Shown: positions 3,624 to 53,864, counted from the first letter of the whole stretch. The stretch: 63,237 nucleotides of DNA, filler included, from Collodictyon triciliatum (GCA_043381765.1; 11 parts of 11 records of this genome joined end to end with filler, not necessarily neighbours in it), one strand, 5' to 3'. Notes: generated by a model from the sequence alone, not told the origin. Program-made: numbers and translations.

Positions 3624-5283
3624 TTATGAGACGCCCGCACCAGCGCCGATAAATCGGATGGCCTCTGAAACCCCCAGGCTTGCAAACATCTTACCTCTAG
3701 CTACTATTCGACTTTGGAATGCTTTCTGCTCATATCTCATCACATATTTTGCAACCCATGGGTGGGTCAATAGTAGCTTTCGAGAAAGTCGCAGCTTTGG
3801 GTTGGTCCGCATCAAGTTTTGTATGAACGTGGTTGCATCTGTATATAAAAATATATTATCACAGCTTCTATATCCAAGTCAGCGAAAATTAACTCCGTGT
3901 TTCCCCTAGTGGGTCAGTCGAAGTATATAACTCGGTGTGGCCATATGTAAATATAAGGAAATATAGTGATGTCATTCTTGTGTCATGAATGAATTAATCG
4001 ACTAAATATAAGAGATGAGCATAAAATATACATAGACATTAGATGAAATTACCATGGGAGAGCCCATCAGGAAACCTGAGGGTCGGATCTCGTTGTGTTT
4101 GGATTAGTAGTTCATATTCATCTATCCAATTTTCGCCAAAGGGAATGAGCTTCGTAAACATAGAAAAGGTGAGGCATCCAAGGCCCCAATAGTCACTAGA
4201 GTAGTCGTATGTTGGTGCGAAAACAACCTTTTTGTTGTGTTTTTTTAGAAAGAAAGAAAAGAAAGGATAATGACGTATATGATTGAACTATTTCAGACAA
4301 ATGGGTATTGTTCGATGTTTTTTTTTAATGTAATCTTATATTGACTAATACATAGAGGTAATGAGATTTAAAGCTAAATATTTCGCTATCGTTTCTTTAC
4401 TTTTTTTTTATCATTATTGTTATCATCACTACTGCTATTGTTATGGTTAACTCATGTATATTTCGAATATGAGAAATTTACTTCTGGAGCGATATATCCA
4501 GGTGACCCACAAACAAATTGGTATTCCGCTTTAACTGTATAGCAACTGCAACACAGTCCAAAATCACAAAGCTTGACAATACCAGTTTCTTGAACTAAAA
4601 TATTTTCGGGTTTCAGGTCGCGGTGAATAACCCCGTTCTCATGACAATAGTTTAGAGCAAGAATGATCTGAGAAATAATCTTCTTTCCGTCTCGTTCATC
4701 CATGCGCGGGAACGAGTTAATATAAGACAAAAGATCTTCTCCTTGGACAAGCTCCATTACGATATATGTAAAGTCACGGATAGGATCTTCTACGAGCTGG
4801 ATGAGTGTTATGCGTATATGTTTGTATGAGGCCAGAATGAAATGATACGAAGAAGAGGAGAAATATGAACAAGTAGTATTAAATAAGTCTAGGAGGCATC
4901 AGTGATGATATAATTAATCATAGAAAAATGAGAAAATTCAAAATTATTCAACCTCGATGAGCTGGACAATATTTGGGTGATGAAGTCGAGATATTGTATT
5001 GACCTCACGAAGAACATTAATTCGGTCATGAGATTCTAAATGTTCAACATTCCAATCAATCACTTTTGCAGCTACCTAAAAACATGTGCGACAAGTCAGA
5101 TTATTATTATTAATATCATTATTACTATTATCAAACAAGTGAGGGGTTTCTGTTGCTTCTCTTCTGTAATTTATGAATCAGCTCGTATCTTTACCAATAT
5201 TTTTGATGTTTTACTGAAGCACTTCCATACAGTCCCTGTCGATCCATACCCAATAACCTTTAAGAAAACATACTCGTTGATAC
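3624..5283 (-). CDS. Ser/Thr protein kinase, CAMK/AMPK-like (multi-exon; start exon not resolved)
   Basis: Spliced motifs IGYGSTGTVWK, VAAKVID, LHHPNIVQL, IHRDLKPEN, DFG, GSPGYIAPE, SDYWGLG, and RLS...THPWV before the stop at 3624. Confidence 0.9.
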
Positions 5284-5973: not shown

Positions 5974-8900
5974 AAAAGTGTTGAGAAATTCGAATACCTG
6001 TATCAATATAAAAAAGACAAAGTAGAGAATAGCTGGTGAGGTGTAGGGAACTACGAAGGCAGTAAACCCAAACACGATTGCTTGTAGGACCCGAACTACA
6101 ACCCACCAGTCATAGTCCTTGAATAAATGTCGTATAGCCATAATAAATTAAAAAATTAAACTATGTCAAACAGGTTTTCTCCTCTTTATTTGATTCGAAT
6201 AGTATGCATAACAGAACGAATACTAAATTACCTCCTCGTAAATAGAATACAGTCGGCCTATCTGAATCTGGCAGACGAGATCAAAGATAGACACGGATAA
6301 ATCTAATCCGCTACTTTTTATGGCGCACTTACTATGAGAAGGCTTCGTTTCTTGTGATTCGCACCCTGATTTTTCTGTCTCCGTCTTTTCGTCCTTTCGA
6401 CTGGGATTTTCTTGTTGAACCTCATTCTGAATTTCAATAAAATGCATGCCTCGTAGCTCATTCATTTCAATATTAACGGGTTCTTCAATATTTTGTACCT
6501 TTAGCTCCTAATCAATTCAAAGTCTCTGTTATTTTTTGCACAAGTATTTATAATTAGAGAAAAATTCAAAGTACGAAAAAATAAACTAGAGCAAAAGAAC
6601 AAATTTATCGATTGAGAGAATGAATGAATATTTTTTTGAACCTTGTAGGTACTATACTCTTCGTGTCTCATCGACCTTGATCTCTTGACAATCAACCAAA
6701 GTGTCATGGGATACGAGAAGAGATATATTAAACCCGGCACAACCGACCCTAACATGATTGCATAATTCTCTGTCATAGGGTTACACTGTATCCACGGGTA
6801 AGTATTGAGAAACCATGATTCCAGCCCTTTATCGTGGAGAGTGCACCCCAGTTTACTCATTACATCTTGAACAACAGAAAAGTAAGTCCCTTCCAAGAAT
6901 ATAAACATCACTGCAACAACTTATTATATTTAATCAAAAATATTAATAGCCTACAGGTGATCGTTATGAAGTTCCAATTACTTAATTTTCGTTACCTTCT
7001 CGACTTTTCTCTTATCCTTCTTTCTAACAAACCTCCTGAGAGCTACATATACTATAATAACTATCGCAGGAATACGCGCAAGATTCATCAATGAGGTAAT
7101 ATGAGGGTGATTTCCCACAAAGCATTCAAGGGTTGGTAATTTGAGTGATACTGCGTTTCCAACAAACTTCCCGGCCACATTAACATCAGGCAATGAAACT
7201 ATGCTCCCCAGTACTTGAAGTATTTGAGTGTAGAACAAAAATATGTCTAATGACGCTATTATTGAAAATAATTCAATTAAGTTAGCATGAAGAAAATTCA
7301 AGAAATGAGTTTCTATTCTAAGAACTTGTTCACGATATGAATATTTAATAAGCTGATAACCTGAATCTTTTTCCTCTTCTTCATTTTCTTTTCCTTCATC
7401 CTCCTGTGTACTTTCTCCAAACCAAGCTGATCCAATTTGCCATATGACTCCAAAGAACAAAATTACAACAAATGCAACAATTTTTGAAATGGAGTAATCT
7501 GATGAACATTCATTGCACTCCCCAGCATCGAAAAGATACCCTTCTTCACATTTTTGACACCCCCTACCAGAGTAGCCCTCCTGGCAAGGGAACACGTAGG
7601 TTCCGTCCTTGATAGACATTCTGTCCTCCATCGAGTTTCCAACATAGAACACGCATGAATCAGGATTCATACACGGAACAATATCACGTATCGTCACAAT
7701 GTTCGGGGTGAAGTAACATTTTTTTAAAGACACACCATCATCGCAATCACATGTCTTTGGGCATTTAATACAATCATTCCCGTAGCCAAAGTATCCAGGT
7801 AAGCATTTGCAAAGCCCATATTCGTGATAGTTTGGATTGATGGAAACTTTCATTTCAGTAAACGCAACCTTTGCTAACACAGATGGGCATATGTATTTAT
7901 CGAAAAAATTACTTAGACTAAAAGGGTTGGTAAAATTCATGAAATTTGGCAAAAATCTGGCCTCATTATGGCTCATGGACGTGTTTTCTAGGCCTAAATA
8001 CTCTAGCTCTGTTAGTCTGCTATACGATTCTGGAATACTCCCAACAATCGGATTTCCAGATAAATCGAGGTAATTCCATCGAGCAAATCTAGTCAGGTCT
8101 CCGAGCTTTGTTATTTCGTTATTTTTCAAGCTTAATTTTTTCACATTTTTGACAAAATCGAATATGCTCCCATCTAATCTTCCATGCAGTTTGTTATCAT
8201 CCATTAAAAGGGTGTGATAAACGTAATCATAGGAGCCTGTTGCCGGTGAAATAAATGAACCAACCTCCCCAGAGAAGAGATTTGCCCTTAAATCAATGAA
8301 CACTAGTGACTCTGAATTCCAAAACAAGTCCGGCATGCTCCCAACAAATTTGTTATTTGATATGGTAAAAGACCTCAAGTATTTCAAATTCTCGAAATTT
8401 TTGGGGATTACTCCACTGAGTTCGTTTCTGGAAAGATCAAGAGCTTCAATCAAGGGGATGTACCAATCAAAGGGAATCGATCCTTTGAGCTTGTTGTTTG
8501 CAACATCCAGTTTGGTCAGCTTAGGGAGATAAATGGATGAAAATGTGTTATTAAGGTTGTTTTTAAAAACAAAGATTTCCTCAATGCCCAAGCAATTGTT
8601 GAAACTTGGTATTCCTCCATGAAGCTCATTTTCATATGCAGAGAATTTGTTCAACACAGGAAGGTTAGAAAATTGTGGAATGGTGCCTATTATTAAAAGA
8701 TACTAAGATTTCTTTGGGAGTGGCAATAGGAAAAATAAATTAATATAAGCGAATGTCTAAAAATGATATACAACAAGATTGAAAATAAAAAGGAGTTAGA
8801 AAATACCCGTTAGAGTGTTAGATGCCAGTTCTAAGAACTTTAATGACGCCAAATTTATGAAGTCAGGGATACTACCTAAGTAAAAAAATCAACCATCCAG

Positions 8901-23564: not shown

Positions 23565-23900
23565 TTGATGTTGTTACGACGCTCAAACCGCCTCCCTTTT
23601 GTTTTTGTTTTTGTTTTGATTTTTTGTTTTTGTTTTTATTTTTATTATTTTTTATTTTTGTTTTAATGTTTGTTTGTTTTTGTTTTTTTTTTGTCTGTTT
23701 GTTTGTCTGTTTGTTTGTCTGTTTGTTTGTTTTGTTTTGTTTTGTTTTGTTTTGTTTTGTTTTGTTTTGTTTTGTTTNNNNNNNNNNNNNNNNNNNNNNN
23801 NNNNNNNNNNNNNNNNNNNNNTTAATTAATTAANNNNNNNNNNNNNNNNNNNNNNNNNNNNNNNNNNNNNNNNNNNNAAAAAAAATAAGATTTAAAACAC

Positions 23901-23932
<32 letters not shown>

Positions 23933-24001
23933 AAAGGAAAAAAAAAAAAAGAAAAGAAAAGAGAAAGAAAAAAACCAAGAAACGAAAAGAAAAGAACTAA
24001 C

Positions 24002-27000
24002 CTATCCATCTTATGGCTACTAAGCGAGCGTAAGCGGTCTTTAGCAGCTTTATAACCGCCCTTCAATGACAACTCGAAGTAGTAAGTAGCCATGGTTGGA
24101 TTCACTTCCACAAAAACTCCCTCGTCATAAGACAACCCAACCAAATAAGCCGCCCTCGGGTGTTTCGGCTTACTCACAATCAAGTCATCAGCAAGTTCGC
24201 GCAGAACCTGCAGTGCCCCCTGATTTCCCGCTTTCACTCCATCCCATAGGCGAGTGTGTGGCTCCTCGGCTTCCGGGTTGGCCATTATGGCCCATCTGTA
24301 CGCCTTCAACTTGTCTACAGGCTTTGTCCAGCCATTCTCGTAGCATTCCGACATTAACTTTGCTGCGGCAGGGTATCTAATCTTATCAAATCTCTTCAAC
24401 TTGGATAGATTTTCAAGCTCTTCGAACGCATCTACACTCCCCTTTTGAAGCATTTCCCGCAACTCATCAAAAAGACTGATATTTTTGCCCTCGTGTATCA
24501 TGGACACTAGTGTCATGAGGTATTGTTTGGATGATGTTGTTGATGGTGATGAGGATGCATGGGTGGTAGAGGTGTCTTTTGGTGGCTCTTTGAGTAATTC
24601 TGATAGAGACTTTGCGGCCGATGGATTGATGGCCTGATTGAAATCTGTCTTTGTTGCAAAACTAATTGCTAGGCTGATTGCTTCCTTGTGTCCGCTCTTT
24701 GCCATACTCACAATATCTTCCATAGATTCTTTCAATCCAAGTTCCACTGATTTTTCCAATAGACTCAGAGCCTCAGCAGGATTGGCTGGTGAATAAAGTC
24801 CTTTGTAGCGACAGTAGGATATTTCCCGAAGAGCACGCCTTTGGATTTTCGGTTTATCTGCATTTCTGGATGCATGCAAAATCAAATTATAAACGTCCTC
24901 ATCCAAGGCTTCCAATGTCTTTCGAATGTATATCCAGAGCTCGCTGGACTCTGGTTCTGCGATACACCGAATCTTGATGGTATTTGTTAGAGACTTTTCT
25001 GTACCCCAGCCATTCTCATAGCATCGTGCAAGTGTTATCAAAGCTAACCTCTGGAATTCATTTGGCTCGGTGCGACCCTGATGCGCCACAGCGAAGATGA
25101 TACCAAAAGCTTCAGACTTGCCTGCTTTTGCTTCGGCCTCGGCTTCCTCTAATCCAAGAGAGTTTTGATTTTGTACGAGCGACCGAATTCTCTGCATTTT
25201 TGTAAAGTTTGAGCTATTCATCCCCACAAAAAATCCATTTTGTTCTATGGTTCCCAACCGAGTTTCGATATCAGGCTCAATATAACAGTAGTGATTTGTG
25301 CCTACAACTTCTTTCAAGTAGAATGCAGACAGTTGAAACCCTTTCCTGAGCAATGCCGAAAGGAAACGAACAGCCTCTGGAGATCCCATGACCGCAGCTC
25401 TTCCGAAGTAATGGGTGGCCTCTTCTAAATCCACAATACCGATCCAGCCTTCATAGTATCCTCTTCCTAACTCCAACTGCAATTGTCGAGATATTGTTGT
25501 TTCTAGCTTCTTCTCACCAGAGAGGCTAAGCAATCTGTCCAATGCAGTTTTATTTCCCTCTTGGCAGAGTTGCACCAGCTCCCCAAGTGCATGTAGCGAC
25601 CCTCTCTTTACAAACTCGCTCAGTTTCCTCACTCCCTCGTCAACGTTTTTTTGAACAAACCAACCTTTAAAATAGCATTTGCACAGTAAAATTTCTGCAA
25701 GATATATATGGGATGTTGTTGATGTCGACCTGGAAAGTACATCACGAATTGCAGAGTACGCTCCTCTATTTTGGTTCTCCAAGAGTTCGGATAATATAGT
25801 AATACCAAATCCATCATCACTTTCTATAAGGCTCTTACCCACTACAACCCAATCTGAGTCGCTAAGAATCGCCTCCTGTTTAAACGCCGGGTCTGAGGCA
25901 ATAGACTTACATAGTGATAGATATTTAAGTCGGCCGTTTTTTTCTTTCACCGAAATTACTCTTTTCAGTATCTGAATTGCACTTTCTTCATGACACATGG
26001 TGCGCTCCACGAGGTTTTCCCATGCGCCCTTTTGATTTTTTGCAAGTATCATCTCAAAGTATGTTGTGGCTTTTACAAAGTCAGGAGAAGTTCCTATTCC
26101 CTGTTCAAATATAGTCATCAACATTTCCGCCAAATCGATATATTTGTAGTCCTCACAAGAGTATCTCTGATTCACGTAATACTCTAAAAACTCAACAACG
26201 TAAAATCTGCCTTCCTCCACATATTTTTTGAATACCTCTTTAAGATTTTGACTATGTATTGGAATTTGAGATAAAAATAAAGCAGCTTTTTCCAAACTTT
26301 CTGGAGTAGGTGATGTGCCCATCAAAGCTTCCAACATCATCCACAAACTCTCTTCTAGAGTATTCTGATGTTTCATTAGATTATATAGGACCGCTCTTTT
26401 TAGTATCCTCACCACACATTCTTCTTTTTTCTTCATTAATCTTTTTAAATTAGGAAAGAAGACACTATCCTCTTTAGAAAGATATTCGTAAATTGACGCA
26501 GCAATATCCAAGTTCTGAGTTACACCGACTCCATACTCGTACATTTCAGCCAAGTACGGAAGAATCGGCGAATTGGATGAATCCTTCTTCCACATCTCTA
26601 AAAATTCAATTTTGTCTTTGTTCATTATATTTGCGATTGGGTTTGGGGTAAGAGGGTGCCTTTTAAGCCCTCTACTACATTCTAAAAGCAAACCTGCACG
26701 GACTAAGTTCTGTAAAATGCTATTCCACTTGAAACGCTTCGCTGATCTATCATTTCTTGTATAGAAAAGCGTCATATTTGAAAATATGTCTGCTAGATTA
26801 TGTCGTATTGGTCCTGAGCTGATTTCATAGAAATGTTCATCAATTGCACACCCTCCTTGATTCTTGATAAACTTGACATCATCTTCACTTTTGAACGTGC
26901 AATCAAAAAATGATGATTCGGAGAAGCAATTATGACGTTGCCGTGGTCGATGAAGCCCGTCCAGGGTTATATTTGGGGTGCTATCCTCAAATTTTTTGCA

Positions 27001-29540
27001 ATCTTCATCAGAGGTAAAAATTGCTACGAGTTCGGTACCATTGTATAGGTTATTTTCCTTCAAATAGAGATAGTTTCTTCTTATTGGGTTAGAGAAGCGC
27101 CCAGTCGTCGACGAGCATATTGATATAGAACAGTCTGAGAGTATAAAGAGTAAACTTGGGTCGCGATTCGATGATTTGCAATAGATGACAGATACTATCT
27201 CGCATGCAGATTGAAATACTCCTACAGTTGCCTCTGTCAATGGATTCCATACGTAAATTGTTCCCTCGGTTGTGTGAATCACTTGGCAATTGATATTATC
27301 CTTTATGTATTCAACAAGGAAAATTGTGTTTGTTGAACGAGGTGTCGTTCTCCACACCATATCGCCACCCCATTCACCATAGAAAAATGGATGACCAATC
27401 TCATACCTCGGTAGGTTCCCAATGTAGCTTGACTCCATGTCGCACTTGAAAAAGAAGCAATCACCGAAATCAGCACCAATCATAAAACAATTCTTGAAAG
27501 TACAATTGAAGAATTTAATGTGTCGTAAACTTCCGTTTGAGATTATGGAATTCTCGAAAACAACTTGATGAAACTCTTGATGGTCTATAGTCGAACCAGA
27601 TAAGCATAAGATAGATAGAGCATTACCTGCAGCCACGGACATTGAGGGACAATTTTCAGCAGTTGTTATGATTTCAAGAATTTTTTCTTTTGAAGTCTTA
27701 CAATTTAACACCTTATTTGCTATCTTGTCGATTTGGTATTTTTCTAGTGGTTCAGATATGAACTTTAGCAAATTTTCGCTTTGTGCGCTTGTAGAAGATT
27801 TTCTCATCATCGCTAGATTGTATTTTGGATCTGTAATGTGTTTGAAATCTAGGAGGTTTTTTTCATCAGGGGTAGCGTTTTTCTTGGATGAAAGTAAGCG
27901 AGCATGTTTGCCAATGCGATAGGTACCCCCTCTAAATAAGTGTGTTCCATTAGAGTTTGCCTGGCTGAGAATTGAAACGGTGCCTTTCCATAGATCACCA
28001 GGGGTAAATTTTGCTGATTGGATTAACTCATTCAAAATATCTACAAGAAGGGGGCTCAAGTCTATCTTTTTCACATGCATATCCAATCTTCTAAGTATGT
28101 TATCTAAGAACTCAATTGCTGATGCAAAGAGTTCTTCGCTATGTTTTCTTCGTAAGATTTCGATCCGAAAGAGCTCTGAAGCCCACACAATTGGAGGATA
28201 TTCTGCATCAGAATCGATAAGCTTGATAAAATACTCTTCGAAATCCATAAATAATCCGTTCGTCAATAAAATGTGTGCATCAATTAGTTGATAGACCCAC
28301 GCTGGACTTTCCACAGGACATCTGGACAGGGTGTTTCTCATATTATTAAGAAGAATGAAAACGGACCGCTCGAAAGAAAAGTTCTCTAACAGCATCAAAC
28401 CCAATGTTAACTCTTGGCTAGCATCGTACGTGTCATGATCGATTTCTTGGTTTCCCATTCTACGAAGGGCATATATCTGAATTTGTAGTAAAGAATTTGA
28501 GAAAGGGTCTAGAGTCATCTCAAGTTCCCTACTTAGCGAGTCAGACAATTGAATTGCTCGCTTCGATATGTGAAAAGGGAATTTAATGCACGAAAAAGCT
28601 CCCAATAAAAATATCTTTGCCATGGGAAACATGTAATGCTTGTTAGTAAGATGCCATCTTGGTGGGTTTTGGTTTCCAAAATCGATAACTTTTTCAATGA
28701 CACTACTTAGGTTACAAATCGTGCACTGCTTGCGTATAAACTTTGGTAAAATACTTGAAAGATTTTGAAGTGTTTTGTGCTCAAATAGCACACTCTCACA
28801 TTGTTTCACAATTGCACCCATAAAGTCTGTGGCGTGTATTGGATTTTCAACAAAATCTACACACATCAACAAATCAATGGACTTTGTGTCTACACCCAAT
28901 TTTTGTTCTGTTGTCATTCTTTTCGTCCTAATTTCATTGGATATGCGTAAAAGTTCGACAGGATCACTGGGCATGATCAATTGAGCTACACTCGCAACTA
29001 CATTGCGTCTGAAATGCCTGCTACTTGTGGGTGGATAATATAGATTTGTCAAGACTGCTTGCGGTGCGTTGTGGAAAACATGATTCATGAAAGCAATGAT
29101 AGTTGGGGTAGAATCTTCGTCGACAATAGGATCTCTCTGGTCAAACTTGAGTGAGTTCAAAACGTCTTTTACATCGCCTTCATTATTACCGTCTTCATTT
29201 ATCATGAAATCGGGTGGTTCATGAACCGCAGCAGGTAATCGGATTAGTCGGCCATGGCATTCTCCCTCGTTTTGTTCTCCAAAATCAATATGAAGCTCAA
29301 AATTAGTCGATATATATTCTGATATTGCTTCATAGCTCATCTCATACCAATGCCGGTCTAAAGGAGGCTCAATTGGCTCGGTTAACACAATATCCCAGGA
29401 CTCAAAAGTCTCATTAAAATAATATAGCGTAATTTCATCGTCATTTAGGACAAAAGCGATATGCCTGGTTGTATTGGTGCGTATTGGGACTTCATACATT
29501 CGGAAAAGGTATATCAGCGAATCAGTTTGCAAACCGATTT
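24002..29540 (-). CDS. Very large protein (single ~5.5-kb exon) with helical/TPR-like region, pentapeptide repeats, beta-rich segment and multiple Sel1-like repeats; partial
   Basis: AAGNALSILCLSG...FENSIISNGSLRHIKFFNCTFKNCFMIGADFGDCFF (pentapeptide); LAEMYEYGVGVTQN, LGRGYYEGW, LARCYENGWGTEKS, VGLSYDEGVFVEVNPTMATYYFELS (Sel1). Confidence 0.8.
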
Positions 29541-32500
29541 CTAAGTAAATAATGATAAATAAGAATAAGAATAAAACCGAATTGAATTGAATTGAATTAT
29601 GACTTAGTATGCGGAAAACTCTAATATCAGGGTTAATCTCAAGTATGTGTTTTATGTGTTTTATGTGTTTTATGTGTTTTATGTGTTTTATGTGTTTTAT
29701 GTGTTTTATGTGTTTTATGTGTTTTATGTGTTTTATGTGTTTNNNNNNNNNNNNNNNNNNNNNNNNNNNNNNNNNNNNNNNNNNNNTTAATTAATTAANN
29801 NNNNNNNNNNNNNNNNNNNNNNNNNNNNNNNNNNNNNNNNNNACTCATATATTTTAATATTTTCACTTTATTACAAATTTATTTCAATTTTTTGATTTCT
29901 TCAGCACCACACCCATGGCACAAACCTCTCAAGTTTTGCTACGAGAAAGAGATTGGGATGTGAGCTTTCCTCCCTTTGTAAATCCTCGACAATCATAAAT
30001 AAAGACTCAAACCGTAACTTCTTTCCTTTTAGGTATGCATCGAATACCCATGACAGGTTTGGTTGAGACTATCTCAACGATTAGGAGTGTATTTGGCCGA
30101 GTGAAATTGTAGGGTTTTTTTTCATCTAAATGTGTTCGTTGAACTAATAGCATTAAAAATAAATATGAAAAGTATATATTTAGTGTATTCTCTTTACTTC
30201 CATGCAAATCAGTGGCCTTTTTTATTATCAAAAACCAATATAATGTTAAATTTGTACTCTTGATTTAGTTCATGCGGATGCACTGCGCATGTGTCTGGAC
30301 TTTCTCAATAGATATCATCCAATCGGTCGAAGCGATGATTTTTGATAATCAGGGCGAACTCCTATGCAAAGTGTGTGTTCACGATGTAAATTCATCAGCA
30401 GCCAAAAAAGTCTGCAAAGCGTGTTTTCTGCTCGATAGCCTTATCGCGTGCCTCCAAAACTTGCCGTTGGAAAGACTAAGAAATGGGTTTGCCTTTCCCA
30501 TTTTCTTTTGTTGTAAATAAGTGGCACTTTCATTTCTTCGCTTTTACTGTCATTTTTTTCCGATCAGAACTTATTTGACACCAAATACTATCAGCAGTAT
30601 TCTGAGCAATATATTTCTCCTTTTTCCGAGTCGCAAGGATTGGCGCATCTGTCGTTTTTTAATTACATCAGAACAGTCATTTACCGAGTACAGTGCAGAG
30701 TCATCAATGAAGAGGCTCGATGCCAAACACAAGATAAACATCAAGTTTTTAGAATGTAGATTAGAACTTTAAAACCCCCGATATCAAACGAATAATTACT
30801 TTTTCGAATGATTTTGATTCTATTATCCTTGAACTTCGATATTTACTCGCAAGAGGAGATGATTATTTTTTTTATTTGCTTGGCTAATCTATATTAGTGA
30901 TGCTTTGAGTTCATTGATCGATTGATAGACGCTGCAATATTCGGTCGCAGCGATGAGCAACCGTTTCACAAAGAAACACAACATAATCCTAGCAACTGGA
31001 AACATGTATCGCATATCCGCATTCAGTCGACGTCATAAGCTGCGAAAGGTGGCGAGAAATAGGCACTTGTGCATCGGGGATTGCGCTCCGAGACAAGAAA
31101 GAATGAGAAAAATAAAATATTTATCTTGCATGAAAGGTATAAGAAAACAGAAAAATTGTATTCTCTTGCACATCGACGATGAATGATGTGCGGCAGATTG
31201 GATTTTGGACGATGCACTTTTCTCACTTTCATGGCAGAGAAACTTTTGCAAGATGCACCTGGCCATGCAAACAACATGCGGATGAGGCTGGAAAATATCA
31301 TCTAATCCAGTGCTTGGAAAAAAAAATTAGCTCGATGGAATCAAAGAGGCGTCTTGTATGGATATAATTGCCGAGTATATGACAAAACAGTTGGGCACTT
31401 GGAGATGAATAAATATCGACAGTTCAATTAAGCTTCCGATTCTGATTGTAACATATAAATATATATTGGTAACAACTGCAGACTTACTTTGATTTTTAGA
31501 GGGCTCTGACGGCGATGGCGCTGTATGGGTCGGGCGTGTATCCTTATCGGCGTGTATGTTACTATTATTTGAACAAGAAAGATGGTTTCATTCTTTTCCT
31601 GATTGTTTTTAAGTCATTTACACACAAAGCACCCAAACAATGGCTTCGAAGTTATGTTTTTCTGGTCCAAACGAGAATATGTATATCTCTTCATGCGCTT
31701 TATTTAAAGGTAGGTTGTATATAGTGTTCGTACATGAAGGAATAATCAAAAGAGTTCAATTATATACGATTACATTAGAAGGTGTCCCTCTTATTCGGCT
31801 AGAGGACGAAAAATGTGCTGCAGATGGTGTGGTGGACATTTACTTCAATGTAAATCGCTTCTCCACTAGTTAAGCATGCGACCGATTGGGTAGGAATGCC
31901 TTTTTGGATGATTTCCTTGTTGTACTGACCATCACCTCCGCTAAATATGAATAAAGAAGGATCGTTTTCATATTTGCTTGTTTTCAAAACATGTTCTCAC
32001 AAACTTATACTGACAGCGACCTTAAATATAGAAGAGAATATACCTTACAGTTTTATTATTTAGCAGCAGTATACATAAAAGAAAATAAATTACGCTTCAC
32101 AACAACTAATATCATGCATCCGATATTGTAGAGCGCTGGATATCAAGCAAAAGCTCATGGTTACTTGTAGCCGAATTGTGTTTAACAATCTCTAGAGGTT
32201 TTTTTTTTCAATATTTACTCATTTCAGTCTGAAAAAAATATTGAAACAGGAATTATGACCATGTTAGTCTCTTTTTCAAGTTCAGATTGTCTGATTTTTT
32301 CTATTTGTCAAATTTTCCTAATTACCTGGGCGATGATTTCATTTTCATTCGTGTATGAAAAAATCATGATTGGTAGTCTATTGAATGAGCAAACTAACCC
32401 ACTGCATCATTTCCTATTTCTCCACTGGAAACAATAAAGGCAACTCGTTGAAGCTTTTCCCACTGTATGACAGCATCTCGATTCAGTGCGCAAAATATAT

Positions 32501-39727: not shown

Positions 39728-40758
39728 TTAGAACTCCACAGTAATAAGGTCGGATGGACATTCCTTCGTCTCGATGAACTCGGCATATTTGGCACAGCCC
39801 AAATACCAGACATAAGCAGCACCAACTACGCAGACGTGCCACCACTGATGGCTATGGAACTATAGAAAGTACAACGAGAAAAACAAAGTAAAAAGGAAGA
39901 AGAAAAAGGAGAAAGAATAGAAAAAAAAATGGTAGGAGGGATTTGTAAATGAAAAAAAATGTGAAATCATATTTTGGATTCACTTTACTTATCTACAAAG
40001 GTCAAACTCACCCAGATGTCAAATCGGCCAGGAATCCAGCACTCTGGGAACGCTGTCAGGTAAAAGAACAGGCCGATGCCGTACAACACAAACATCCCGA
40101 TAACATATCCCAGAAACATATCGCGCTCCTGGGCAGGCGCCAGCATGAGCCAATGGACAGACGGAATGATGCCCGAGAGAGTCATGGATATGTATATCAT
40201 TTGGCGATAGCGCTCGTTTTCAGGACGATGCATAAACTCGAGATAAGCCGCCAGAATACTGGCTCCAGCGAAGATGCAGATGCCTACAAGATAAGTCCAG
40301 ACCCAGTGGGTGTAGCAGTAGAAGCCGAGGTAGATAACCGGGAAGAATGAGGCGCAGATCTGAGCGGAAATCCCACACATGTCCAGCTTGAGAAAGCGGA
40401 AGAAAGCATGGTACGAGTGGCAGTTGAGGAGATGGTAGAGAACGGAAAAGCACATGCAGAGTTGCACCCCGCCAAGGTACAGCATCAAGATGTAGTTTTG
40501 CGCACCCGAGTCATAAAATCCGGTCCATATCACACGCCCAAGTGCAAACAGATTCAGCACCGTGAAGAGTCCGAGACCCGCAAGGTGAGTCCAGCAGTTT
40601 CCTGTCTCGTTGTGGACTCGAAACAGACTCTGGAAGCAGCGGTCGAACGAATAATACAGGCGGTATCCGTGTAAGATGTACGGACGGCGCCAGAGTTCTG
40701 GGATGGACCCGGCCGAAAGCAGCGGGAAAAGCTCTTCGTGCGGCATTGGATTGTTCAT
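39728..40758 (-). CDS. PAQR/AdipoR (HlyIII family) membrane protein; N-terminus probably extends upstream
   Basis: YILHGYR, SLFRVHNETGNCWTH, SVLYHLLNCHS, LDMCGIS, PECWIPGRFDIW | FHSHQWWHVCV (second exon ~39728-39859). Confidence 0.93.
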
Positions 40759-41596
40759 GGGATTGCAGTCTGCATCGCAGGTTCCGAAGGCGCTCGTTGG
40801 GTGGCATTCCTCGGCGACTGCTTGGTCCTCAAGAGGTGGCTGTTGGCGTCCGCTCGGCCTCGCTGGGTTTGGGGTGCGCCGCTTCTGTTGCTTTTGGGTG
40901 CGGATTACTCGATTTTGTGAGTATTTTTGGAATCTTTATATTTGGTTTAAGTTTTTATTGAGTTTTTCTGTGGGTATTTTTGAGGTCTTTATGTTGGTTT
41001 TGTCTTCTTTTCTTTTTTTTTTTAATAATAAATGAACTAGAAATCCTTTAGGTAATCGGCTACCTTGACCCGAAGTCGTACTGACCCAACCATTTCCTCT
41101 CTGCTTTTCAATTTTTAGGGGGTAGCTTTGCATTAAATAAGTTTTTCTCTTTTTTTCTTCTTCTCTTTTCTCTTTTTCTCTCTTTTTCTCTCTTTTTCTC
41201 TCTTTTTCTCTCTTTTTCTCTCTTTTTCTCTCTTTTTCTCTCTTTTTCTCTCTTTTTCTCTCTTTTTCTCCCTTTTTCTCTCTTATTTCTTCTTTTCTTC
41301 TTTTCTTCTTCTTCTTTTCTCTCTCTCTCTCTCTCCTTTTTTTTTCTTTTTTTCTTTTTTTCTTTTTTTCTTTTTTTCTTTTTTCCTCTTCTCAGAAGTC
41401 TTTGGAACACGAGCAGATGCGTTTGTTGGGTTTGACAGTTCGACTGATTTCCCCGTTGGATTTCCAATTTTTGTGGTTGTTAATATAACCCATAACATCG
41501 ACATTAATTTTCTATTTATGGATGAGGTTGAAACATACTAGAATTATCAAAATTCATTTTTGTGGAAAATAGAGCAAAGCCTGAAAACTGTTTTGA

Positions 41597-47470: not shown

Positions 47471-47748
47471 ACGAAAGTATATTTGATATTGACCAGACTT
47501 TGTAATGTTCATATATATATGTTCATATTTGAACTGGTCACAAATTCACTATACGCATAAATGTTGTGTTCATTATTCCATCAAAATGCCACTTTCTTTC
47601 TCGTCTCTTTTTTAATGGAGTTTACTTCANNNNNNNNNNNNNNNNNNNNNNNNNNNNNNNNNNNNNNNNNNNNTTAATTAATTAANNNNNNNNNNNNNNN
47701 NNNNNNNNNNNNNNNNNNNNNNNNNNNNNGGCTATATTCTATGATCAT

Positions 47749-47862
<114 letters not shown>

Positions 47863-47990
47863 CGTCAATAGATGTGTCAATCAACCTGACTTACTATATA
47901 TCCCAATGTAAAACTTATGTTATCTAAGAAAGGAAAAAACAATCAAGTCGCATGATATGTATTTATCTATATTTTATCTTGAATGTATAG

Positions 47991-49599
47991 AACCGATGAA
48001 TATCATAGACCTGATTGCGATACTGCCCTTCTATTTGGAGCTGATATTTTCAGCAGTAATATCACAAAATAACCATTTATTATCCACTTCAATGATATAT
48101 ACCTGCCAAAGCCTTTCCTTTTTTCTTTTATTTCGCTTTGCAAACATTACCTTACTTTTTTTTAAATAGGGATTCTCTGGTTTGAGAGTTCTTCGGACGA
48201 TTCGATTGGTTCGTGTATTTCGAGTTCTCCGTCTAGGAAAATACTCTAAAGGATTTCAGGTATATATCAGAAACCTGGTGCGTTACTTAGTACACGTAAA
48301 TTTACATTTTTACCTCCTAAAAAATGGGTGATAAGAAGAAGAGGAGAAGAAAACGTAATAAACTATAATTGATGAATTTTCTTGATTTCATAAACTTCTA
48401 GATTGTCATCAGGACACTGATAAAGTCAAGGTCTCCGCTCTTTCTGCTCATATTTATTTTGGGCTTCTTCATGGTCATATTTTCATCCATGATATACTAT
48501 ATCGAACGTGGAACTTTCAATGATGGAAGATTCTGCAGAACACTGATAGATGGTGTCTGTGAGCCAAGGTTATAATATGTATTGCGTAAAAGAAAGCATA
48601 ATTACATAAATCGATGTAGACATGGCGTATGAAGCATCAAAACTGCGGCCCTTTTTTGACTCTATACTAACTTTTTTTAATTATAAAACAAGTCCGTTTG
48701 ATAGCATAATTGCCAGTTTATGGTGGTCGATCATCACTCTGACTACAATTGGTTATGGTGATAGCAAACCATTCATGCGACTATATATCCTGCCCATTTG
48801 TTTTTTTATTTTAAAAAAAAGTGATATCACATCCATATTGGTCGATAATTATAACTTTAACAATCACACAGGTGATATCTACCCTACTACAAATGCAGGA
48901 AAGTTTGTATCATGTGTAACTGCGATATGTGGAGTCGTGGTATGTTTTATTTGATTTAAATATATAATTGCATATTTTTGTGTATCATCTTTTTCATATC
49001 CATATGTTCAATTACTTGTGTTTCTATTTTAAACAAATCCACATAACTAGTTGTCACATTATTTTCAATATTTCTGTACTTATCGCTATACACGCAACAC
49101 ATGAGAAAATAATTGATGTTCAACCATACTAGGCACTTGCTTTTCCGATAACAATATTGGGTAAAGTTAGGCATATCATTTTGCTTATAATTAACATTAC
49201 GAAGCTATTTCCTGTTATAGCAAGAACTATAAGATGAATCCCTGACATCGTTGATTTTTATTTAAGGGAATAATTTTGCTGAAGAATGGAGTCAGAGCTA
49301 TCCCCAGAAACCCAGAAACTCGATAATACCAGCGAATTCTGTATATTTTTTCTACGCGTATTCGAACAAAGTATCTTGTGAATTCTAACGCCATATTCAC
49401 GGGTGACTAGAGCGTACCGACAGACGAGGCCGACTTGAATGGCGACCGAAAATCTATTCGAGACAAGATATTTCGACTTTTTGAATACCCTGATTCTTCA
49501 ACTCCTGTGAGTATTATTAATCTTGACCAGTTCGCAATTCATTAATCGTACGTCATTTTATCATATAATTTATTTGATGTACGAGTGGTCTGATTTTCC

Positions 49600-49674
<75 letters not shown>

Positions 49675-52600
49675 NNNNNNNNNNNNNNNNNNNNNNNNNN
49701 NNNNNNNNNNNNNNNNNNNNNNNNNNNNNNNNNNNNNNNNNNNNNNNNNNNNNNNNNNNNNNNNNNNNNNNNNNNNNNNNNNNNNNNNNNNNNNNNNNNN
49801 NNNNNNNNNNNNNNNNNNNNNNNNNNNNNNNNNNNNNNNNNNNNNNNNNNNNNNNNNNNNNNNNNNNNNNNNNNNNNNNNNNNNNNNNNNNNNNNNNNNN
49901 NNNNNNNNNNNNNNNNNNNNNNNNNNNNNNNNNNNNNNNNNNNNNNNNNNNNNNNNNNNNNNNNNNNNNNNNNNNNNNNNNNNNNNNNNNNNNNNNNNNN
50001 NNNNNNNNNNNNNNNNNNNNNNNNNNNNNNNNNNNNNNNNNNNNNNNNNNNNNNNNNNNNNNNNNNNNNNNNNNNNNNNNNNNNNNNNNNNNNNNNNNNN
50101 NNNNNNNNNNNNNNNNNNNNNNNNNNNNNNNNNNNNNNNNNNNNNNNNNNNNNNNNNNNNNNNNNNNNNNNNNNNNNNNNNNNNNNNNNNNNNNNNNNNN
50201 NNNNNNNNNNNNNNNNNNNNNNNNNNNNNNNNNNNNNNNNNNNNNNNNNNNNNNNNNNNNNNNNNNNNNNNNNNNNNNNNNNNNNNNNNNNNNNNNNNNN
50301 NNNNNNNNNNNNNNNNNNNNNNNNNNNNNNNNNNNNNNNNNNNNNNNNNNNNNNNNNNNNNNNNNNNNNNNNNNNNNNNNNNNNNNNNNNNNNNNNNNNN
50401 NNNNNNNNNNNNNNNNNNNNNNNNNNNNNNNNNNNNNNNNNNNNNNNNNNNNNNNNNNNNNNNNNNNNNNNNNNNNNNNNNNNNNNNNNNNNNNNNNNNN
50501 NNNNNNNNNNNNNNNNNNNNNNNNNNNNNNNNNNNNNNNNNNNNNNNNNNNNNNNNNNNNNNTAATAATAATGATAATGATAATAATAATGATAATAATA
50601 ATGATAATAATAATGATAATAATAATGATAATAATAATGATAATAATAATGATAATGATAATGATAATAATAATGATAATAATAATAATAATGATAATGA
50701 TAATAATAATAATGATAATGATAATAATAATAATGATAATGATGATGATGCTCAACAAAATGAAATTGGATACAGGCTTTTTTCATCTGCTCATTTTACT
50801 TCGCTTTGATTATCGCATCAATCGTATTACTTTGCTATGATAGCACTCTTGGCGGGGATAATGAAAAATTGTTAGTATAAATTATGATATACACAACAAT
50901 TTTTTTTGAAGCTTACAATAACTTCTGTACGCAAACTCTATATCGAATTAAGTAAAAAAAAAATAATAATTACATGCGCACACATTATTTTTATTTTTCT
51001 TCTGGCATCTGCCAATATTTGTTTTATTTTGATCCAAAGCATATACAACCCTTACTTTTTGTTGCTAAATGTGGATTAACACATCATGAACTAATGGGTT
51101 AGTTTTTGGGCTGAAACAACCTTTGCGGTATTCTTTACAATCGATTTATTTGCCCGTGTCTTTTGTGCTCCGAATCCAAAGAAGTATATACTGTGTAAGT
51201 AAAATTGATCCAATTATTTGTCATGCTATCTCCAAACCGATAGCTTATTTTCGATAATAAATGAGTTTTTCAGGTGAACTTATATTTACATTTTGTCATG
51301 TATAATACCAATAATACCAATAATAATAAATGTGGGTGATTGTAGCATTCTTTGTGTTAATCGATCTTGCGTCCATTCTTCCGTTCTACATGGATTTTTT
51401 CCTTTCAAATGTAAGAGTATTACGCATAGCTCTCTTATACGAAGATATTTTACAAAAAAATAATATAAAATAAATAATCCTATGATTTGAACCCTTTTCA
51501 GTCGTATGCCAAGTCGATTAACTCGCACCTTTCTTGATTATTTTCTTTTGAATATTATGTCTTGTAGGATATTAAGGTTTTGCTTATTCTTCGTGTGGCT
51601 CGCCTTGTTCGAATATTCCGTATCATCAAGCTGTCCAAATTCTACTCTAGTTTTTTGGTTTGTATTACGTATTTTTATTGAACATTAATGATATTCAATC
51701 CTAATAATTTTGTAAATTTCTCTATCAGGGCTTTGGTAGGGCTACAAACATTTTTCCGAAATTCATGAATAAAAAATAATGCAATTATATTTACATACAC
51801 CAGGCTGTTATCAATACTGTCCAAAAGTGCATCGATTCACTCTATTTGCTCTTGTTTCTACTCTTCATCGAAGTAATTCTTTTCTCGTCCATCCTTTATT
51901 ATGTGGAACGTGGTGAATTTGAAAATGGGGAATGGATAATGGATGGTCGCAGGTAAAAAAAACAACAACTGATTATATATACCTGAAATAAATTAAAATG
52001 AACATATCATGAAATATGATCGGTCATACCCAAACTTATCATCGTAATACACATCACCAAATGAACTATATTGAAATTTTTCTGTCGCACATTTTCTATA
52101 TTTATGACCACTTCTCCGGCTTCCATTATGAAAACAACTTATCCCATAGTATCCCCCCTTCTTAGCACAATTCTAATCATTGAAAAAAATAATTAGGAGT
52201 GAGTTTCAAAGTATTCCTGACACCGCATGGTGGGCGATTGTGACTTTTACAACGGTGGGATATGGTAAACTCAAAATCGTAAATAAGTTACCTTCATTAG
52301 CTGCTTATATCCTTTGTATATTCTTATCACAGGTGATAAATATCCCGTAACAGCACTCGGGAAAGTGGTCGTTGGAATAGCATCAATTTTCGGTGTTATG
52401 GCAAGCATTTGGCTTTCTACACTAATATATATATAGCTTTGGGACTCTCGATCAATATGCGTTCTCAGCAAACTATCTTTCTTTATCTTTCCGTCTCATG
52501 AAATTGTAAAGCATTATATTTAACCTGCGGTTTTGGTTTAGTGTCATTTTTTTTAACAATAAATCACCATGTAACAGAGTGTTGCATTTCCCATCACAAT

Positions 52601-53408
52601 TATCAGCAATACATTTTCGGATGAGTGGAAAAGCACTGTCGGAATGAAGTCGATGCTGGTAGCCATTGAAAAAAAGCAAAAGAAATCGAGCATAAATATC
52701 ATATAAATATGACGCACAAGTTGTTTTCTTGAATAATGTGAAATTCATAATATATTTATCGTTCTCAAAAATATGATTGTATACAAACAGACAACGACAA
52801 GATTCAACTTTTCTTTCCTCTCTGTAAGTCTGTGGATAATTAATTAATTCATTTATTATTACGACGATTCAAAAGCCTTTTGTTATTTCTTCAAGTATTA
52901 AATATCCTGCATTATCATACGAACTATTTGCGTTCATTTATATGGTTTTATACATCAATCAGTTCACATTTGATTAAAAATTTATTTACTTATTTAAACA
53001 AACTAGCCAACGATAGTACCAATATCCACAGATTCTCCGTTGAAGAAAAAAGTGAGAGCAATTCTCAATTCTCCCAAGACACCAAAGGTTATTCATTGCC
53101 AGAGCCAAAGTGGCGCCTATCTACCATAAAATACCTTAAACACAAATATATAAACTCCACACTGATGATTCGCCATTTCACGTTTTATTCATTCTTTGTT
53201 TCTTTGTTTCTATGTTTCTATGTTTCTATGTTTATGTTTCCTATTATTGCATGAATTATAAGACACCCTATTACATCATACCTGACCATTCAAACTTTTC
53301 ATCCAACTTCAGGAGAAAATGTGCAACCTGTTTATTCAATTGCTCGCACTGGGCTCTGTTATACTCGCTGTTATATCGACTCTCGATTATTACCAGAACC
53401 GCGGGGAT
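47991..53408 (+). CDS. Multi-domain voltage-gated K+ channel (Shaker/Kv-like): partial domain A, complete domain B, start of domain C in one reading frame; partial at both ends
   Basis: [147 protein letters not shown]. Confidence 0.88.
49675..50561. other. Internal scaffold gap flanked by (AAT)n/(ATG)n repeats, inside a K+ channel intron
   Basis: 887 N between microsatellites. Confidence 0.99.
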
Positions 53409-53864
53409 GTAGTCTCCACGTATATTGCGCTATATTATACCCCTAGCTCCTATACTCAAGCATCAATTTGTTTCCTTGGCTACATATATCATTGATCAGT
53501 GAAAAATAAAAGCCCCCCCACCATCCCACACACAAACCCACACACACACACACAAACCTCCACACAAACACCCACACACACACACACACNNNNNNNNNNN
53601 NNNNNNNNNNNNNNNNNNNNNNNNNNNNNNNNNTTAATTAATTAANNNNNNNNNNNNNNNNNNNNNNNNNNNNNNNNNNNNNNNNNNNNTTCTTTTTTTA
53701 TTCTTTTTTTATTCTTTTTTTATTCTTTTTTTATTCTTTTTTTATTCTTTTTTTATTCTTTTTTTATTCTTTTTTTATTCTTTTTTTACTGCTCACGAGG
53801 GTTTGAACGCACTCATTCCGGTTGACTATGTGCTAAATCAAATTTTTAATTTTGCTGCCAATAG

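Follow-up and report, generated by a model that had tools for sequence, protein, structure and literature searches.

The subject of this report is a putative potassium-channel gene of Collodictyon triciliatum, a fragment of which lies on the plus strand of a single scaffold, positions 47730–53589, within a 63,237-nucleotide stretch of DNA from this organism (GCA_043381765.1; hereafter, the window). A first-pass annotation, made from the DNA alone, had read positions 47991–53408 as a single chain with at least three tandem Shaker-like domains, a natural concatemer that might comprise four repeats of six transmembrane (TM) helices each (4x6TM). Here, we describe the gene model, its relatives, and the readings that compete to explain it.

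A channel gene fragment and its exons

The window consists of 11 pieces in falling order of length, namely ten scaffolds of about 5.86 kb each and a last piece of 3.6 kb that reaches the window end. The pieces are joined by N44-TTAATTAATTAA-N44 spacers; hence, adjoining pieces are not genomic neighbours. The channel scaffold (5.86 kb) begins in an (ACT)n run, finishes in a (CA)n run, and has a single internal gap of 888 N at 49675–50562, with (AAT)n-type microsatellites on either side. The first-pass annotation had the start of this gap right and its end, given as 50561, one base short. Long microsatellites of the (ACT)n, (AAT)n, (AAT/GAT)n and (CA)n types occupy 47740–47862, 49600–49674, 50563–50750 and 53540–53589, which are the two scaffold ends and the two flanks of the gap, and they probably account for the assembly breaks at these places. 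When the spliced model was compared by tblastn with the other scaffolds of the window, only four chance-level matches (E 3.4–6.3) were obtained outside 47991–53408.

Splicing was rebuilt independently from a six-frame list of open reading frames (ORFs) and exact splice borders. The resulting model has 19 exons of 28–167 bases on the plus strand. All 18 acceptors are AG, and the donors are GT in 17 cases and GC in one (at 52401, the donor of intron 52401–52577). Introns measure 68–244 bases, apart from one of 1269 bases that contains the N gap. Translation of the joined exons from 47993 is open for all 523 codons. The product comprises S3–S6 of a first repeat (A), a 53-aa linker, a complete S1–S6 repeat (B), a 52-aa linker and a third S1 (C), in line with the linkers of about 50 aa estimated previously. 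The scaffold ends (53589) 181 bases 3′ of the third-repeat S1 exon, inside the next intron. The features are listed below, with the evidence for each; P0151, P0152, P0157 and P0005 are ORFs of Diphylleia rotans introduced in the next section, and repeats are numbered according to these relatives.

47991–48055, plus strand: exon, end of S3 of repeat II (A); AG acceptor, GT donor, open frame, aligns to repeat II of P0151
48170–48259, plus strand: exon, S4 of repeat II, seven basic residues, one at every third position; weak PF00520 match, profile positions 91–114
48402–48568, plus strand: exon, end of the S4–S5 linker, S5 and 40-aa two-Cys turret of repeat II; PF00520, E 7.1e-5, profile positions 118–156
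48693–48757, plus strand: exon, pore helix and filter start (T-I-G-Y) of repeat II, phase-1 intron splitting GYG; phmmer query region
48872–48939, plus strand: exon, end of the filter (G-D) and N-terminal half of S6, repeat II; splice borders, phase
49133–49160, plus strand: exon, second half of S6, repeat II; splice borders, phase
49267–49340, plus strand: exon, post-S6 segment and first part of the II–III linker; splice borders, homologue alignment
49411–49506, plus strand: exon, second part of the II–III linker with pre-S1 motif, no Met; in-frame TAG just upstream, aligned to P0151, P0152 and P0157
49507–50775, plus strand: intron of 1269 bases, holding the 888-N gap and (AAT)n and (AAT/GAT)n; frame kept, no gap relative to homologues
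50776–50870, plus strand: exon, S1 of repeat III (B); splice borders, homologue alignment
51103–51194, plus strand: exon, S2 of repeat III; splice borders, homologue alignment
51346–51410, plus strand: exon, S3 of repeat III, with the first in-frame Met of the repeat; splice borders, phase
51568–51657, plus strand: exon, S4 of repeat III, six basic residues, one at every third position; splice borders, S4 count
51804–51952, plus strand: exon, S5 and 35-aa turret without Cys, repeat III; PF00520, E 0.0014
52197–52264, plus strand: exon, pore helix and filter start (T-V-G-Y) of repeat III, phase-1 intron; P0005 departs from P0151 exactly here
52333–52400, plus strand: exon, end of the filter (G-D) and N-terminal half of S6, repeat III, with the sole GC donor immediately 3′ of it; splice borders, phase
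52578–52658, plus strand: exon, C-terminal half of S6 (repeat III) and first part of the III–IV linker; splice borders, homologue alignment
52791–52823, plus strand: micro-exon of 33 bases, linker, phase 0-0; linker length matching that of P0151 (one gap in 52 columns)
53007–53087, plus strand: exon, III–IV linker with pre-S1 segment, no Met; in-frame stop just upstream, homologue alignment
53313–53408, plus strand: exon, S1 of repeat IV (C); repeat-IV S1 of P0151, P0152 and P0157 aligns here

Both visible pores carry the TxGYGD signature reported for them, as T-I-G-Y-G-D (repeat II) and T-V-G-Y-G-D (repeat III), and both S4 helices are charged as described, with seven and six basic residues, respectively, spaced three apart. 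The two repeats are 45.5% identical (76/167), which rules out a recent or artefactual assembly duplication. A phase-1 intron falls within the GYG codons at the same place in each, and all five comparable intron positions coincide in place and phase. Single-exon Pfam scans match PF00520 in three of eight cases, at the expected profile positions, with every score below the curated cut-off of 25 bits.

Earlier, S6 of A had been proposed to run stop-free into B, and S6 of B into a third S1. Our model supports both connections, the first through exons 49267–49340 and 49411–49506 to the S1 at 50776–50870, and the second through 52578–52658, 52791–52823 and 53007–53087 to the S1 at 53313–53408. The latter junction, between repeats III and IV, lies on uninterrupted sequence and alone shows concatenation. 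As to the former, exon 49411–49506 stands directly 3′ of an in-frame TAG, the 70-base intron upstream of it contains no ATG, and the earliest in-frame Met of repeat III lies within S3. Taken together, these features mean that repeat III cannot be translated as a 6TM unit unless it is spliced to something upstream, and the closest exon on that side with a compatible phase is the one that follows S6 of repeat II. The join 49506 to 50776 is in frame, with no residue inserted or missing in a MAFFT alignment with P0151, P0152 and P0157, indicating that the N gap lies in an intron. A stop or mis-join hidden in the gap, raised beforehand as a way in which the concatemer might prove false, thus receives no support.

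Diphylleia orthologues and the placement of the repeats

A word-based protein search with the repeat-II pore frame, directed at longer proteins, returned 84 candidates, none at E ≤ 0.001. A phmmer search of 1.84e9 representative proteins, using the repeat-II pore region read through its intron, unspliced, gave 200 matches at that threshold, with multi-repeat proteins on top. The closest relatives (P0005, P0002 and P0006) come from Diphylleia rotans (EukProt EP00002), a freshwater flagellate of the group known as CRuMs, and are ORFs in its Trinity-assembled transcripts. The spliced model is 61.6% identical to P0005 over 406 aa (E 1e-159), 42.8% to P0002 over 484 aa and 40.8% to P0006 over 534 aa, and is colinear with each of them through the linkers.

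Search of these protist transcripts for multi-pore chains, suggested in the first-pass annotation, yields three full-length D. rotans isoforms, P0151 (1148 aa), P0152 (1160 aa) and P0157 (1169 aa), each with a Met start and four pore signatures. Pfam assigns each of them four PF00520 and four PF07885 stretches (496 bits over the four PF00520 stretches in P0151) and, otherwise, only IRK overlaps above the cut-off. Neither cNMP_binding (PF00027) nor BTB_2 (PF02214) was found in any of the three, which agrees with the earlier statement that the channel has no T1 assembly domain and no cyclic-nucleotide-binding domain (CNBD). Hence, the suspected natural concatemer of four repeats has full-length, colinear counterparts with exactly four PF00520 repeats. 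Aligned to P0151 by MAFFT, the spliced model is 56.5% identical (294/520 columns), with 117/164 residues matching in the core of repeat II, 139/222 in repeat III, 15/51 in the II–III linker and 13/51 in the III–IV linker. In repeat III, P0005 diverges from P0151 precisely where GYG ends, at the site of the phase-1 intron of the window gene, and this departure fits a retained intron at a conserved position.

To place the individual repeats, a maximum-likelihood tree was built from 20 of them, two from the window, four each from P0151, P0152, P0157 and the contig-encoded protein P0003 (see below), and two from Lotharella P0159 serving as the outgroup; neither the P0001 family nor P0281 was included. 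In the three D. rotans paralogues, each repeat position (I, II, III and IV) has its own clade (support 97/94, 96/95, 100/97 and 100/99, respectively). Window repeat A falls in the repeat-II clade and window repeat B in the repeat-III clade, both adjoining P0151. From these placements, the scaffold spans II-S3 to IV-S1 of a P0151-type 4x6TM gene, and, as read from the tree, the four-repeat layout is older than the D. rotans paralogues. With regard to the order of duplication (I/III versus II/IV), a grouping of II with III has support of 84/76, and the branch leading to repeat IV is long. No grouping by position is seen between the P0003 repeats and those of D. rotans.

The repeats also differ from one another in ways that recur across species. 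Repeat II alone, in the window gene as in each of the three D. rotans paralogues, has a turret of 40 aa with two Cys, versus 35–37 aa elsewhere. S4 carries basic residues at only three or four positions in repeat IV of the D. rotans paralogues, versus five to seven in repeats I–III. Two repeats of the orthologues have E immediately after GYG. The repeat-specific turret and S4 differences indicate that the repeats have specialised. The features that characterise the Diphylleia type, namely colinear II–III–IV order, short linkers, a two-Cys repeat-II turret and position-specific clades, are all seen in the window. The D. rotans ORFs are alike the window gene in repeat order, linker lengths and repeat-specific features; they belong to another organism, and the window covers only II-S3 to IV-S1. 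The repeat count is therefore three in the window, and four by way of the orthologues and the repeat-II/III placement. We infer that repeat I and the remainder of repeat IV are present in Collodictyon triciliatum as well.

Four-repeat chains of this kind occur beyond these three genes. A fourth, distant D. rotans gene (P0281) also encodes four repeats and no CNBD. CNBD-less four-repeat ORFs are found uninterrupted on unrelated genomic or metagenomic contigs, including P0003 (1748 aa on a contig of 9215 bases) and P0001 (1493 aa on 6164 bases), the latter with family members P0004 and P0008. Among the other long matches scanned that have three or more pores, 15 of 17 contain cNMP_binding. The CNBD-less four-repeat type is thus rare in the database, and not unique.

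Structure searches were performed with P0151. Against PDB sequences, Kv2.1 scored best (3.2e-55), followed by Shaker, Kv1.3, Kv3.1, Kv1.2 and Kv4.2; KCNQ came far lower, near 1e-20, and the 60 matches listed are of Kv and KCNQ channels only. AlphaFold2, one of the checks proposed at the outset, was run on P0151 with an alignment of 28 sequences, and gave a mean predicted local distance difference test score (pLDDT) of 81.9 and a predicted template-modelling (TM) score of 0.82, with low confidence only at residues 1–35 and in the three linkers. Among PDB entries, the best 50 Foldseek matches of this model all belong to 24-TM channels made of a single chain (Cav2.2, Cav1.2, Nav1.7, Nax, NavPaS and NALCN), aligned over 1199–1339 columns, that is, over the whole length, with TM-scores of 0.60–0.67 and 12–16% identity. 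In short, the orthologue is predicted to combine a Kv-channel sequence with the chain architecture of Nav and Cav.

Function and competing explanations

Based on the data above, the scaffold very probably carries the central part of a single gene, whose product would be a Shaker-type K+ channel with four repeats in one chain (4x6TM, 24-TM). If so, one chain would fold in the manner of Nav and Cav, with four non-identical T-x-G-Y-G-D/E pore loops around a single K+-selective pore and four domain-swapped voltage sensors, all drawn from that chain. Repeats I–III would sense voltage through S4 helices with five to seven basic residues, and repeat IV (three to four in orthologues) would act as a weakened, modulatory sensor. 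Fusion would fix the stoichiometry and order of the repeats, letting each of them specialise, and under this mechanism the T1 assembly domain may be dispensable because assembly is covalent.

On this basis, we favour, with some reserve, a depolarisation-activated, K+-selective current in which repeat IV is a weak or modulatory sensor. It is also possible, albeit unlikely, that the gene encodes a genuine four-repeat channel of other function, one that is hyperpolarisation-activated, weakly selective, voltage-insensitive or organellar. Selectivity is not readable from the filter motif alone (PMC7576140, cited here, like PMC6259924 below, from part of its text); E follows GYG in two orthologue repeats, and the sensor of repeat IV is poor in charge. 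On the other hand, all visible filters are T-x-G-Y-G-D, S4 of repeats II and III has its seven and six basic residues, and the nearest solved relatives are depolarisation-activated members of the Shaker family.

Several observations weigh against a single four-repeat chain, and some of them would suit a tandem array of separate 6TM Kv genes that form ordinary tetramers, the linker exons being intergenic or untranslated sequence open by chance. Read-through of the donors at 49341 and 52659 (past 49340 and 52658) soon reaches stops after each S6, at 49386–49388 and 52704–52706, so shorter products are conceivable as isoforms. The S1 exon of repeat IV contains a Met at which that repeat could in principle start. 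The linkers are weakly conserved relative to P0151, though their lengths are kept, and hence the borders of the linker exons rest mainly on splice signals and length. No RNA run of the organism is listed for 50755–53530. Still, we regard separate genes as highly improbable. In repeat III, the frame offers no Met upstream of S3; an in-frame TAG stands just before the pre-S1 exon, and the 70 bases upstream of that exon are free of ATG. Both linkers match, in length and partly in sequence, the single ORFs of three D. rotans transcript families. The repeats fall in position-specific clades II and III and are not interchangeable copies. Finally, consensus splice sites of compatible phase bound all four linker exons.

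Additional caveats to the single-chain reading concern the assembly and the supporting comparisons. The II–III junction crosses the unsequenced 888-N gap, and the frame would be kept by chance one time in three. One intron requires a GC donor. Five of the eight singly scanned exons gave no PF00520 match, and the others fall short of the cut-off. The count of four rests on orthology, since repeat I, S1–S2 of repeat II and S2–S6 of repeat IV are off the scaffold. The D. rotans ORFs derive from de novo transcript assembly, and the structural model is that of the orthologue and not of the window protein, with an alignment only six sequences deep over repeats I and IV.

An assembly artefact joining two loci across the N gap, or a decaying pseudogene of a four-repeat channel, could be suspected from the short 5.86-kb scaffold, its microsatellite-flanked gap and the non-canonical donor, and is scarcely credible given that the III–IV junction by itself shows concatenation on uninterrupted sequence, that the gap is flanked by repeat II and then III in orthologue order, in frame and with no residue missing, that 523 codons contain no stop or frameshift with 18/18 acceptors and donors usable, and that parts of the locus recur, with 0–4 differences, on short contigs from the metagenomes of other samples. 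These near-identical contigs, from freshwater metagenomes, are all that four DNA metagenome runs returned (151–228 bases, over 51493–51653 and 52790–53359), together with low-complexity matches at 53188–53233, and they include no informative joints.

Neighbouring scaffolds and comparison with known channels

Several other scaffolds of the window hold genes of other kinds, those given here all on the minus strand. At 39985–40932 lies a PAQR/haemolysin-III protein (PF03006 in relatives), 59% identical to a D. rotans transcript ORF, the next best matches reaching 30–32%. Used as a marker of kinship, this gene, which is unrelated to the channel, places the source of the window among the relatives of Diphylleia and apart from D. 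rotans. A frame of 1951 codons with Sel1 repeats (E 3.7e-20) is open across an entire scaffold, 23887–29739, and at both of its ends; it is apparently intronless, unlike the intron-rich channel gene. A 573-aa frame at 6978–8699 begins with leucine-rich repeats (LRR_8, E 5e-16) and continues into a stretch rich in Cys and then a hydrophobic tail, and its predicted product resembles a receptor-like surface protein. The regions 703–1836 and 4452–4895 encode a Myb-domain protein, with (TQ)n repeats and a long tail of low complexity, and an exon for a protein-kinase domain.

Kv channel subunits are normally separate proteins, and the fused four-repeat layout is otherwise known from Nav, Cav and CNGK. 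Full-text literature searches turned up no description of the D. rotans four-repeat ORFs. Four-repeat, CNBD-less Kv-like sequences are public, and the class appears undescribed in the literature searched. In the main-text passages covered here of a study of Kv-like diversity (PMC7576140), whose supplementary tables list 302 sequences and may include a four-repeat entry, there is no mention of Diphylleia or other CRuMs, and four repeats are reported for CNGK only. Similarly, in the part of PMC6259924 covered, CNGK is named as the 4x6TM representative among K+ channels, with repeats that are nearly symmetrical.

A different kind of four-pore chain also came to light in the database, outside the window. 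Five proteins of 350–450 aa (P0013, P0045, P0055, P0106 and P0137), the first of them from the dinoflagellate Durusdinium trenchii, show four pore signatures at intervals of about 95 aa, along with four stretches of PF07885, and lack a voltage sensor. Judged by this layout, they resemble K+ channels that unite four pore-bearing 2TM units in one chain.

With members of the Shaker family, Kv1–Kv4 (e.g., Kv2.1, 8sd3; Shaker, 9zs7; Kv1.2, 2a79), the gene shares the 6TM core, the T-V/I-G-Y-G-D filter and an Arg-rich S4, and these are the nearest solved sequences to P0151 (E 3e-55 to 1e-34). Kv channels of this family have one repeat per chain and an N-terminal T1 domain, whereas here at least three repeats occur in one chain. 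One open frame unites three repeats in the window, and the orthologues have four. No T1 was found in the linkers, of 53 and 52 aa, or in P0151, P0152 and P0157, while the N-terminus of the window protein itself lies beyond the scaffold; the Kv2-type database matches, by comparison, all show PF02214.

Two-repeat Kv-like channels such as P0159 of Lotharella globosa, in the part of the source covered, are similar in that CNBD-less Kv-like 6TM repeats are fused, divergent and placed in position-specific clades. They differ in having two repeats, and presumably form dimers; the window-type channel has four, and three repeats already share one frame in the window.

CNGK, or tetraKCNG, of animals and choanoflagellates likewise has four 6TM GYG repeats per chain (PMC6259924, PMC7576140). 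There, a CNBD follows every repeat and the repeats are nearly identical (PMC6259924). In the window gene, linkers of 52–53 aa are too short to hold PF00027 after each repeat, the orthologues contain none, and the repeats are asymmetric.

Finally, Cav and Nav chains resemble this channel in their 24-TM single-chain fold, as predicted from the orthologue model, and in their specialised repeats. The two differ in that identity is a mere 12–16%, the pore here bears a K+ signature, and sequence searches return Kv, not Nav or Cav. Nav and Cav pores rely on single-residue selectivity rings. Their four-domain form is thought to have arisen when a 6TM gene was duplicated twice over, an ancient step that is not observable today. 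We lean towards the view that, in the heterotrophic flagellate lineage of Diphylleia and Collodictyon, a Shaker-type K+ channel independently became a 24-TM pseudo-tetramer that is asymmetric and has specialised repeats, II having a disulfide-type turret and IV a charge-depleted sensor. If true, a CNBD-less, asymmetric, Shaker-type four-repeat K+ channel would represent a second, younger case of the 6TM-to-four-domain transition, the K+-selective counterpart of the step that yielded Nav and Cav, still near its single-repeat relatives in sequence space. It would allow tests of what covalent linkage brings (fixed order, loss of T1, division of labour among sensors) and of how a GYG pore tolerates four different walls. 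Such a channel would be a naturally occurring equivalent of the concatemers engineered for electrophysiology, and it would permit one to ask whether the repeat-IV sensor has a special role, as does that of domain IV in Nav.

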